In this document: piece by piece, positions 7,906 to 52,344 of the stretch | How the letters are laid out: each line of letters opens with the position of its first letter | How positions within the stretch are numbered: position 1 is the first letter of the stretch | DNA from: Eubacteriales bacterium | Lineage (GTDB): Bacteria > Bacillota > Clostridia > Oscillospirales > Oscillospiraceae | Length of the DNA: 64,000 nt | NCBI GenBank assembly: GCA_030536515.1 | Contig: JAUNPV010000003.1 | Location: forward strand, 78,282-142,281 | Direction: 5' to 3' | Notes under the pieces: model-generated | Seen by the model: the letters and a program-made list of their open reading frames with translations, nothing else | Database searches by the model: none | What the model was told of the DNA's origin: nothing | Position numbers and translations under genes: made by a program

Positions 7906-8014
7906 CTTCTGCCCTCCTGATACAAATAATACTACATTATACGCTATTTCTGCCGGGCTGTCAATTTTCCGTCTTGAAATGGAGCGGAAAAAATGATACC
8001 ATAGCAGCAAACCG

Positions 8015-8101
8015 CAGGGCGGCCTGTGAATAATCGTATGATTGCCACCGGCAATCATTTTGATTTAGGATGTGCTGCGCACAGCACCACCTCAGGCCGC
8101 C
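8015..8101 (+). mobile_element. 62-bp cassette (8027-8088) inserted in the loop of a GGGCGGCCTG-ACCTCAGGCCGCC REP
   Basis: Removing 8027-8088 restores the REP seen intact at 41999-42024; related cassettes at 30498, 43287 and 49397. Confidence 0.7.
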
Positions 8102-8200
8102 GTCGGCGAAGCCGCATCATTTCGCCTGCCTCAATAGAGTGCAGATTTTGGCGGCCTGGGATCAGGCCGCCCTGCAATGTTGTAAAAAAAGGAGAAACCT

Positions 8201-8893
8201 ATGAACGCACAGGAAATCATTGAATACATCCGCACCTCGGAAAAAAAGACCCCGGTGAAGGTCTACGTCTGGGAAAAGACCCCGGTGGCCTTCCCCGGCT
8301 GCCGGGAGTTCCCCGCCGGACCGGGCTGCAAAATCGTCTTTGGCGACTGGGCCGACGTGGCCCCGGTGCTGGAGACGGGCGATTTTGACCACGTCGAAAT
8401 CGAAAACAGCTGCCGCAACTCCGCCATTCCCATGCTGGACATGAAAAACATCCCCGCCCGCATCGAGCCCGGCGCCATTATCCGGGAGCAGGTGGAGATT
8501 GGGAAAAACGCCGTGATTATGATGGGGGCCATTTTGAACATCGGCGCTGTGGTGGGCGAGGGCACCATGATTGACATGGGCGCCGTCCTGGGGGGCCGGG
8601 CCACCGTGGGCAAAAACTGCCACGTAGGCGCCGGAGCCGTGCTGGCCGGGGTCATCGAGCCTGCCTCCGCCACGCCGGTCATTGTGGAGGACGGGGTCCT
8701 CATCGGGGCCAACGCCGTGGTCATCGAGGGCTGCCGCATTGGCCGGGGGGCCGTGGTGGCCGCCGGAGCCGTGGTGGTGGAGGACGTTGCGCCGGACACC
8801 GTGGTAGCCGGCTGCCCCGCCCGGGTCATCAAGGTCAAGGACGAAAAAACCGCCGGAAAAACCGCCCTGGTGGATGCCCTGCGGGCATTATAA
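8201..8893 (+). CDS. dapH: 2,3,4,5-tetrahydropyridine-2,6-dicarboxylate N-acetyltransferase
   Basis: [21 protein letters not shown]-terminus, [20 protein letters not shown] and hexapeptide repeats. Confidence 0.92.
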
Positions 8894-10088: not shown

Positions 10089-10530
10089 AAATTTTTGAAA
10101 AATGTTGAGCAGGAAAAAGCCTTCCCCCGGGGTGGTGCTCTGCGCAGCAGAGGGATGGCGTGCAGTTTAGGCAAGTACCATTTAACGGCAGTGCCAAAAA
10201 TCACCAACATATCGCCATCCCTCATCAGTCAAAAACACCCAGTCTGCGGACTGGGTGTTTTTGCCAGCTTCCCCCCGGGGGAAGCTATTTTGCGGCCCCG
10301 GGGGGAAGGCTTTGGTGGGGGGCTGCCGTTTTTTGGGCGGATTTGCTTCCTCAAGGGCGGGAAGGCACGGAACGGATAAATCCGTTCCCTACGGGATGCA
10401 AAAAAGGAGCGGCTTGCGCCGCTCCTTTCTTCTTTTTTGGCAACCGCACTGCGTTAGCGAGTGACCCACAGCGGTGTTGGTCCACCACCGAGGTTCGTAA
10501 CGAATTGTCTGCGGCGACTCGCCGCACGCC

Positions 10531-30497: not shown

Positions 30498-30560
30498 AGT
30501 AAATTAAGGAGCGATTGCCACTGGCAATCGACCTATTTTCATCTGCTGCGCAAAGCACAA
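30498..30560 (+). mobile_element. Cassette of about 62 bp inside a family-G hairpin
   Basis: GCCACCT|cassette|CCCCCGGGGGAAGG versus intact GCCACCTTCCCCCCGGGGGAAGG at about 47732. Confidence 0.7.
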
Positions 30561-30641
30561 CCCCCGGGGGAAGGCTGTACGGCTTCGCCGTCGGCACGGA
30601 TAAATCCGTGCCCTACGATTGAATAAAAGAGGAGGTAATCC

Positions 30642-43614: not shown

Positions 43615-43670
43615 TCTCCGCAAGGGGGACGCCGCATCTGTAAGCCGCTGAAGCGGCAACAGCTGCGCAG
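43615..43670 (+). mobile_element. 56-bp second-type cassette inside a family-G hairpin
   Basis: CCACCTTC|56 bp|CCCCGGGGGAAGG; near-identical copy at 52043-52098. Confidence 0.7.
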
Positions 43671-49314: not shown

Positions 49315-49690
49315 TAGGGGAGGGATAATATCCCTCCCGTCGGCCCCCGGCGAGGGGGCCGCTTACAGAGCGACCATCCTGTAGGGGAGGGTCACTATAA
49401 ATTAAGGAGCGATTGCCACTGGCAATCGTTCTATTTTCATCTGCTGCGCAGAGCACCGCCCACCCGTCGGCCCCCGCCAGGGGGCCGCAACCGGCTTTCC
49501 TTATTGGAAAGTCGGTTCATTGTCCACGGCATTACTTTGTTAAATGCTCAGTCCCATTAGATTTATTCGAAAATCCTCGCCGGATTTTCGGCGGGAGGGT
49601 CAGTGACCCTCCCCTACTGGCATGGCAATCTGTTGTTTCCCCGAAAATCCCATTGGATTTTCGGCGGGAGGGATAATATCCCTCCCCTAC
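49315..49690. repeat. GTAG REP cluster (GGGAGGGTCACTGACCCTCCC family) downstream of lexA; one unit is interrupted by the 62-bp-type cassette at 49397-49457
   Basis: Units near 49315, 49381 (interrupted), 49593 and 49666. Confidence 0.8.
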
Positions 49691-51988: not shown

Positions 51989-52344
51989 AAAAACCAGGTG
52001 CACGCCATCCCTCATCCGTCTTGCCTTCGGCAATCCACCTTCTCCCCGCAAGGGGGACGCCGCATCCGTAAGCCGCTGAAGCGGCAACGGCTGCGCGGCC
52101 CCCGGGGGAAGGTATTGGGGGTGCGGCGCAAAAATTGGCCCCCACTTTCCGTGGGGGCCGTTGGTTTATGCTTCTTTCAGGGGCAGGGGGGAGATGACGG
52201 GGGTGCCGTCCCGGTTCAGCAGGGGCGTCAGGCCGCCTCTGTTGCCGTTGAATTGGAACAGGTAATTGACGCCGGTCTGCTTATCCACCCAGATTTCCAT
52301 GCCGCTCACGATGCCCTGGGAATAAACTTTGACGAAGCGGTCCA

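Follow-up and report, generated by a model that had tools for sequence, protein, structure and literature searches.

A 64,000-nucleotide window of the genome of a member of the uncultured gut genus Faecousia (family Oscillospiraceae) contains several copies of a short, structured and non-coding module that has entered unrelated, pre-existing palindromic repeats many times independently, at their tips or in the adjoining arm and in both orientations, and for which natural populations of a related species remain polymorphic. The window corresponds to C27:78282-142281 (contig:positions) in a genome of 2.63 Mb, assembled in 48 contigs with 58.5% G+C and rated 98% complete. The module is a miniature non-autonomous mobile element, but a member of no named family. 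We lean towards the view that this non-coding mini-element of ~60-65 nt, which has neither terminal inverted repeats nor target duplications, is moved in trans by single-strand nicking and joining.

A preliminary description of the window had listed four full copies and one truncated end, and all five were located there by direct reading and with an nhmmer profile; the profile search of the window gave no copy beyond these. Copy 1 (8027-8088, + strand, followed by AC at 8089-8090) extends from TGAATAATCG to a GCACC end within CACAGCACC and lies in the loop of a REP of the GTAGGGCGGCC type (host C). The 5' arm of this REP (GCAGGGCGGCCTG, 8013-8026) pairs with CAGGCCGCC at 8093-8101, the 3' arm as a whole being CTCAGGCCGCC (8091-8101), and an empty, inverted partner REP of the same family (GGCGGCCTGGGATCAGGCCGCCCTGC) is found at 8143-8168 (all + strand). 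Copy 2 (30500-30561, + strand, TAAATTAAGG..GCAAAGCACAAC) is preceded by a filler AG at 30498-30499 and sits in host A, previously called family G, of which the module-free form is CACCTTCCCCCCGGGGGAAGG. Copy 3 (43348-43286, - strand, TAAATTAAGGTATGGTTGCC..GCACCAC), with a filler AT at 43350-43349, is also in host A, and the same module sequence occurs in three host-A copies with differing inner hairpins. Copy 4 (49398-49459, + strand, TAAATTAAGG..GCAGAGCACCGC) lies in a GTAGGGGAGGGTCAC REP (host B), and its module sequence is also present, identical, in the host-A copy at C36:38315. The 5'-truncated copy (10132-10151, - strand) keeps hairpin 2 and GCACCAC and is fused directly to the left arm of host A; two others of that kind are located at C7:11632 and C43:21488.

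The module is 60-65 nt long, contains no open reading frame and is comprised of two small hairpins. The shared layout described earlier, with an AT-rich left end, a central palindrome and a defined right end, proved to be real, and consists of a TRAATTAWGG leader, hairpin 1, a T-rich spacer, hairpin 2, and GCACC followed by RC. Hairpin 1 is built on a GATTGCC-NCN-GGCAATC core, lengthened to 8-11 pairs, and hairpin 2 consists of five pairs with a TGC loop. The right end is sharp, with GCACC+RC present in 76 of 77 copies in the source genome, 113 of 117 in other species and 189 of 194 overall, whereas the AT-rich left end is poorly defined. Terminal inverted repeats are absent, the left TRAATTAWGG not being complementary to the right GCACCRC. 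Among 171 distinct sequences from many species, stem pairing is maintained at 94-99% via compensatory changes, which comprise AT to CG or GC, GC to AT, and TA to CG in hairpin 1, and GC to CG and CG to TA in hairpin 2. A further 88 T-G wobbles in hairpin 2 and 38 G-T wobbles in hairpin 1 are paired on the + strand only; on the other strand the G-T wobbles would be A-C mismatches, so that the structure is kept on the + strand. The folding z-score is -3.9 for the + strand, which forms the two hairpins when treated as single-stranded DNA, compared with -3.2 for the - strand, and in the folded + strand the host arms close around the two hairpins. Read on the - strand, the right-end junction is G(T/C)^GGTGC in every copy, a heptamer and cut position that we take to be the same as those of the F-plasmid oriT nic site, GGTGT^GGTGCTTT.

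Covariation in both stems, RNA-like G-T wobbles on one strand only and folding that beats that of shuffled sequences would also be expected of a functional cassette, namely a structured RNA, or an intrinsic terminator working in both directions, that was brought into the repeats by selection and would have spread for its usefulness to the host, not by selfish mobility. Hairpin 1 is preceded by an A-rich stretch, followed by a T-rich one and was flagged by a terminator scan. We consider this explanation improbable, as the module shows no bias of orientation (++ 16, -- 17, +- 22, -+ 19) or position relative to flanking genes, which also speaks against an mRNA element, and nearly all copies are inside repeats and not beside a particular class of gene. 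Copy 1, moreover, lies between a conserved promoter-like core and an RBS, where a terminator would be harmful. At the gathering threshold of Rfam 15 the window yielded two tRNAs only, and two module copies searched at E values up to 10 gave nothing relevant, so that no Rfam family accounts for the structure. Function also does not explain how the block entered its sites; as a by-product, the module may have a terminator or RNA role. With respect to replication strand, where an IS200/IS605-derived element would be biased towards the lagging-strand template, gene-bias and GC-skew proxies left most copies of this draft assembly unassignable.

A genome-wide search with the nhmmer profile, built from the four window copies, identified 81-82 full-length copies, and a reversed-pattern control gave 0 matches in 101 genomes. 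The claim that the module is found only inside other repeats holds genome-wide for at least 78 of the 82 copies, which are nested in seven or more unrelated repeat families. Of the rest, one is degenerate, one is a chimera, one lies in an imperfect hairpin that is unique, and one has a hairpin host that recurs as a repeat in other species. Classification of the 82 profile matches by their flanks assigned 29 copies to host A (CCTCATCCG, a variable hairpin, CACC and the palindrome CCTTCCCCCCGGGGGAAGG), 21 to host B (a GTAGGGG[AC]GGG REP), eight to host C, six to host D (a 315-bp non-coding repeat), nine to host E (a 260-bp REP doublet), four to host F, and two to host G (a GTAG REP entered on its other strand), the other four being those just mentioned. 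In all these hosts, module-free members far outnumber filled ones. Host B has 220 pattern copies, 25 of them filled, and the host-C family has 165 copies. For host A, ~120 out of 149 pattern matches were judged by eye to be genuine, about a dozen of the module-free matches being chance matches in coding sequence, and 13 copies count as filled by a strict motif test as compared with the 29 obtained from the host classification. The three host families that had been named from the window are thus real and abundant, each with many empty members. Perfect stems of at least 6 bp flank the module in 45% of cases here and 24% elsewhere, compared with 8-11% in controls, which is a moderate enrichment; several hosts are imperfect, or were entered in an arm instead of the loop.

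The junctions were analyzed by cutting the module out in silico and seeking the resulting 22-mer elsewhere in the genome. Exact empty sites were found for five hosts (B, C, D, F, and G). For host B these are gcgggttatca^acccgcccgtc (three occurrences) and gagggtcactg^accctcccgcc (14 occurrences), for copy 1 in host C agggcggcctg^acctcaggccg (21 occurrences in the genome), and for host D tacaaattcca^cacttgcagtc (13 occurrences), with one empty 22-mer each for hosts F and G. Removal of the module had been said to restore the host to within a few nucleotides; restoration is exact for copy 1 and other members of the copy-4 family, and within two bases for host A, where AW stands in place of the TC found in the empty form. 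In another species (G021), GG is likewise lost at the junction. Consistent with the earlier proposal, no target duplication was found at the exact empty sites. At the right junction the terminal C or AC of the module overlaps the base or bases with which the target begins, and 0-5 additional AT-rich bases are present at the left.

The insertion points are located at the boundary between loop and 3' arm in host B, at the boundary between 5' arm and loop in host C, in the loop in hosts E and G, three bases past a hairpin in host D, and, for host A, inside a perfect palindrome, in its 5' arm. Left flanks end in CCTA, ACTA, ATCA, CCTG, TCCA, GCGA or GGGC, without a conserved 4-5-nt target. This pattern of insertion fits the suggestion that hairpins are targeted by their structure, but in 64 of 77 copies a C directly follows the junction, which leaves room for a sequence preference. 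CACCT or TCACT is found directly before the junction in hosts A, F, and B, and CCA^C in host D, all of which resemble the CACC-R^C of the module itself. A second cassette, unrelated to the module and not part of it, is also found in host A. This structured 56-nt cassette (CTCCCCGCAAGGGGGACGCC..GGCTGCGCAG) has 27 copies genome-wide, only in the host-A palindrome, and occurs in host-A copies of the window at 43615-43670 (+ strand) and 52043-52098. It always sits at CCTTC^CCCCCGGGGGAAGG, has its right junction in common with the 62-nt module, and is oriented one way relative to the rest of host A in 22 cases and the other way in five.

Within the youngest subfamily, modules differing by 0-2 bases occur in the unrelated hosts A and B, which have no homology to one another beyond a few bases. 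Among 100 other Faecousia species, 38 carry 1-30 copies in species-specific subfamilies, a distribution that is patchy and burst-like, and none was found in 16 other families of the order, represented by one genome each; the genomes compared are mostly incomplete MAGs, from which mobile genes are often absent. Across species, the hosts of the module number in the dozens, and both orientations occur. With respect to GTAG, 27 copies are forward and four reverse in the source genome, with eight forward and 11 reverse elsewhere, and in G021 the module lies inside the host-E REP family in the orientation opposite to that in the source genome. No gene family recurs as a neighbor of the module, the one large cluster being composed of spurious open reading frames that read through it.

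The comparison that had been set beforehand as decisive, between filled and empty alleles, was obtained at one orthologous locus in a related species, not among strains of the source genome's species. A metagenome scan with the gene beside copy 3 as the query gave a best identity of 75% to that gene, and hence no contigs conspecific with the source genome; it also gave conspecific contigs of a related species, with 96-99% identity extending for >1 kb to either side. Two of these contigs (L179 and L181) carry a filled allele, CCACCT[ GTACATTATGG..GGAGCACCA ]CCCTCTCAGGGGAAGG, and contig L176 and MAG contig L233 carry the empty allele, CCACCT[TC]CCCTCTCAGGGGAAGG, with flanks that match almost throughout, bar two other short variable stretches. 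Two bases are lost at the filled site and none are duplicated, and the homology on the left extends for ~6 bases, followed by a locus-specific hairpin. The empty allele is the family consensus, so the filled allele is derived, or a product of conversion. Two further loci were filled in every contig sampled. Taken together, the absence of a reading frame and of a recurring neighbor gene, the exact empty sites, the identical copies in unrelated hosts, the patchy spread and the orthologous filled/empty pair support well the earlier proposal of a non-autonomous element.

These data also bear on a different explanation, in which the block is immobile alone, made a few moves by illegitimate recombination or template switching at stalled hairpins, and was then multiplied by gene conversion and host mobility. 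Within host D, and likewise within host E, the copies are identical, with 13-16 differences from all others, which indicates that they were captured once and then amplified with the host. All 21 host-B copies are in one orientation although the target is palindromic, and part of the spread may thus be gene conversion or host amplification. Chimeras formed at short common words (C11:74463 and C27:73029), the use of the same host-A junction by a second, unrelated cassette, and the failure to find an enzyme would also fit a passive block. The same is true of the junctions, which are fuzzy by 1-2 bases and overlap the target by 1-2 bases at the right; this variation and the two-base loss in host A are untypical of precise transposases and would fit template switching. 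A passive block would nevertheless have no reason to conserve stems, loops and GCACCRC, with compensatory change, across >35 species, and a separate illegitimate event would be needed for each of the dozens of unrelated hosts. Moreover, modules with 0-2 differences are shared by hosts A and B without homology beyond a few bases, and the left homology at the polymorphic locus is only ~6 bases before the locus-specific hairpin. We regard passive spread, the chief rival, as an unlikely explanation overall.

If the module is instead moved by nicking and joining, the + strand would be the active form and would be handled as single-stranded DNA. The hairpins, chiefly that of the right end (the 5-bp hairpin, TGC loop, GCACC and the junction before RC), would be the site of recognition and cleavage for a protein supplied in trans. 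This protein would nick and rejoin single-stranded DNA, cutting a fixed few bases past hairpin 2-GCACC, by a logic that may resemble that of HUH enzymes, as in TnpA at the right ends of IS200/IS605, RAYT, the Rep protein at the 3' ends of IS91 and Helitron, and cutting at oriT. Hairpin tips and the C-rich start of the 3' arm would provide a single-stranded target. Joining would be exact at the right end, with one or two bases (C or AC) common to module and target, and sloppier at the left, with 0-5 extra bases or two target bases lost. Inside the larger mobile repeats (hosts D and E), the module also travels with its host. Against this mechanism are the lack of an enzyme among the candidates found, the lack of a conserved target in the left flank, and the 1-2-base slack of the junctions. 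A bolder version, which we put forward only tentatively, is that the module may be the minimal substrate of an undescribed nick-and-join system, with hairpin 2-GCACC^RC as its nic site and a ~62-nt single-stranded DNA circle, released from between two such sites, that would be re-joined at tips with a CACC-N^C-like context; the enzyme could be new and HUH-like, or a host, ICE or phage protein acting off target.

A longer autonomous element had been suggested as a check, and no long element bounded by both module ends was found. Nor did hosts D and E lead to an autonomous parent, both being non-coding repeats of 260-315 bp. The suggestion that the module hijacks REP-processing HUH nucleases found no support: the source genome has no Y1 or RAYT match, over 100 genomes the module is not distributed as Y1 is, no GTAG tag is carried by hosts A, D, and F, and RAYTs occur without the module. 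In related species, inverted GTAG REPs of the type present in the source genome are located on either side of RAYTs. Among 11 RAYT-like loci in these species, the flanks shown are mostly plain GTAG REPs and none has the module, which lies 1-1.4 kb from a RAYT in only two of the 16 loci fetched. The source genome itself holds >500 GTAG-tagged REPs, yet its 98%-complete assembly gave no Y1_Tnp/RAYT match.

The other candidates were equally unrewarding. Six IS200-type loci of the genus are without module-like ends, and the score for TnpB was below the cut-off. The single IS110 transposase of the source genome has no similarity to the module, the module-rich genomes G001, G015, G068, G079, G103, and G105 have no full-length IS110 match above the curated cut-off, and IS110 presence does not track the module across the 100 genomes. 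No match to Y2_Tnp, the transposase of IS91-type elements, was found in the genome, the control genomes being likewise without a match, and TrwC and Rep_trans relaxases gave no match; two PF03432 relaxases are present, with no module-like site nearby. The genome encodes three group II intron reverse transcriptases, and the introns have no similarity to the module. A reading of hairpin 1 as domain V was rejected for its lack of a bulge, of a GNRA loop and of sequence similarity. Thus, no mover was identified among RAYT, IS200, IS110, group II introns, IS91 and relaxases.

The presence of reverse transcriptase genes would be compatible with a retro-element, whereby the + strand is transcribed and one of the three intron reverse transcriptases copies it into nicked hairpin DNA from the conserved 3' end. 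The precise 3' end with its subterminal hairpin, the variable 5' junction and the three 5'-truncated copies would suit such a route, but copies that are 3'-truncated or chimeric exist too (two, compared with the three truncated at the 5' end), and on this tally the idea that copying starts at the right end was dropped as a main argument. Given also that the module does not resemble the introns, that it lacks both an A-tail and a target duplication, and that half of the copies are antisense to the surrounding genes, we view a retro-element as highly improbable. The host-E REP family has a terminal arm, GGATTGCCAC, that matches the arm GATTGCCAC of hairpin 1 as a word, and two chimeric copies (C11:74463-74482 and C27:73029-73092, outside the window) are joined exactly at that word or at GGCAAT.

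No literature on repeats of Faecousia was found, and the module was compared with small elements of other bacteria. The small dispersed repeats SDR4-6 of Nostoc and its relatives, reportedly described by Elhai and colleagues in 2008, are said to be nested in other repeats, without target duplication and without a known enzyme. The module resembles them as a very small non-coding repeat nested in repeats, with no duplication and no enzyme. The SDRs differ in being 21-27 nt long, cyanobacterial and grouped into the sequence families SDR1-8, whereas the module is 60-65 nt long and asymmetric, with two covarying hairpins and a sharp 3' end, and is found in a Firmicute. IS91/ISCR elements and Helitrons have a conserved 3' subterminal hairpin near a short terminal consensus, an ill-defined 5' end, and neither inverted repeats nor duplications. 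The module likewise has a subterminal 3' hairpin a few bases from a terminal consensus, a poor 5' end and no duplication, but there is no Y2 gene here, its flanks are without a GTTC/CTTG or A^T target, and it is one to two orders of magnitude smaller. From MITEs derived from DDE elements it differs in the absence of both terminal inverted repeats and target-site duplication.

PATEs are non-autonomous derivatives of IS200/IS605, moved by "peel-and-paste" HUH Y1 enzymes (PMC6006769, PMC10055086, PMC3119063). The module has in common with these the lack of terminal inverted repeats and of duplication, asymmetric ends with different subterminal hairpins and, on the mechanism favored here, one active strand and a single-stranded target, and differs in having no conserved 4-5-nt left target, no ends shared with a tnpA/tnpB element, a size several times smaller and no Y1 gene here. 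The ssr9 module of ISPpu9 (IS110 family) from Pseudomonas putida is a non-coding module that enters REPs (PMC12288879), and IS elements that target REPs are reported by Tobes & Pareja 2006, as cited in PMC3116915. Like ssr9, the present module is non-coding, lacks inverted repeats and would spread into REPs with an enzyme encoded elsewhere; unlike ssr9, which has end boxes common with its IS and one specific REP target, it matches no IS with the same ends and has many unrelated targets. Its hosts are high-copy intergenic hairpin repeats of the kind known from REP/REPIN-RAYT systems (PMC3733652, PMC3116915, PMC2817692), in which REPs have also been found sitting inside other palindromes (Di Nocera et al., PMC3733652). 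The module itself has no GTAG/CGTC tag and is composed of two unlike hairpins, not of one palindrome or of palindromes paired as an inverted doublet; it is not found flanking RAYT genes, and it is guest and not host. As the features that define each of these named families are not all present, the module is not assigned to any. By analogy, it would be nearest in its workings to an IS200/IS605 PATE or a miniature rolling-circle element, and in its lifestyle to the cyanobacterial SDRs and to the nesting of REPs in palindromes.

At ~62 nt, the module would rank with the smallest mobile elements of bacteria for which there is evidence, at the population level, of gain or loss. It lives almost only inside other selfish repeats, and can thus be seen as a second-order parasite. 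Its distribution marks REP-type hairpins as hot spots of ongoing small-scale genome change in an abundant uncultured genus of the human and animal gut, one copy being situated in a gene's 5' leader and others being carried by phage genomes. The sharp right end provides a concrete substrate for fishing out an enzyme, and the answer, whether a nuclease or template switching, bears on how short palindromic repeats multiply and diversify. Should the nick-and-join system be real, bacterial hairpin repeats would serve quite generally as entry points for a whole layer of tiny elements that parasitize other parasites. In practice such elements disrupt assembly, with many copies found at contig ends in related MAGs.

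Twenty-one predicted viral contigs (IMG/VR, L241-L261) carry the module, again in REP-like hosts, and phages could thus carry it between strains; by their look, some of these copies lie between open reading frames resembling phage structural genes. Copies are otherwise single units, with one tandem dimer known. This head-to-tail dimer, in a water-buffalo MAG (L088:4880-4985), is joined as GCACC-AC-CAAACTAATG, the junction expected of a circular or tandem intermediate. REPs vary further in the intergenic region after a DUF4015 gene in the conspecific contigs L179, L176, L233, L175, and L180, where several REPs differ within one 500-nt spacer. Two contigs have CCAGTG-TGCGC-ACTGG at one REP tip where another has CCAGTGAC-GGCG-GTCACTGG, and REP loops are also the points at which whole segments have been exchanged.

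An exact-protein look-up for the genes beside copies 1 and 2 returned no record. In the region at 7921-8200, the REP pair containing copy 1 separates a promoter-like core (gtcaattt..cttg..gatggtaggata) from the RBS that serves the gene at 8201. This core is conserved in 11 other species, and the whole REP pair is absent from the orthologous intergenic region of all 11, which makes this comparison uninformative on the module alone. The same region is only 106-168 nt long in the other species, except for one with an unrelated 417-nt insert, indicating that the leader of the gene at 8201 has gained ~170 nt of hairpins.
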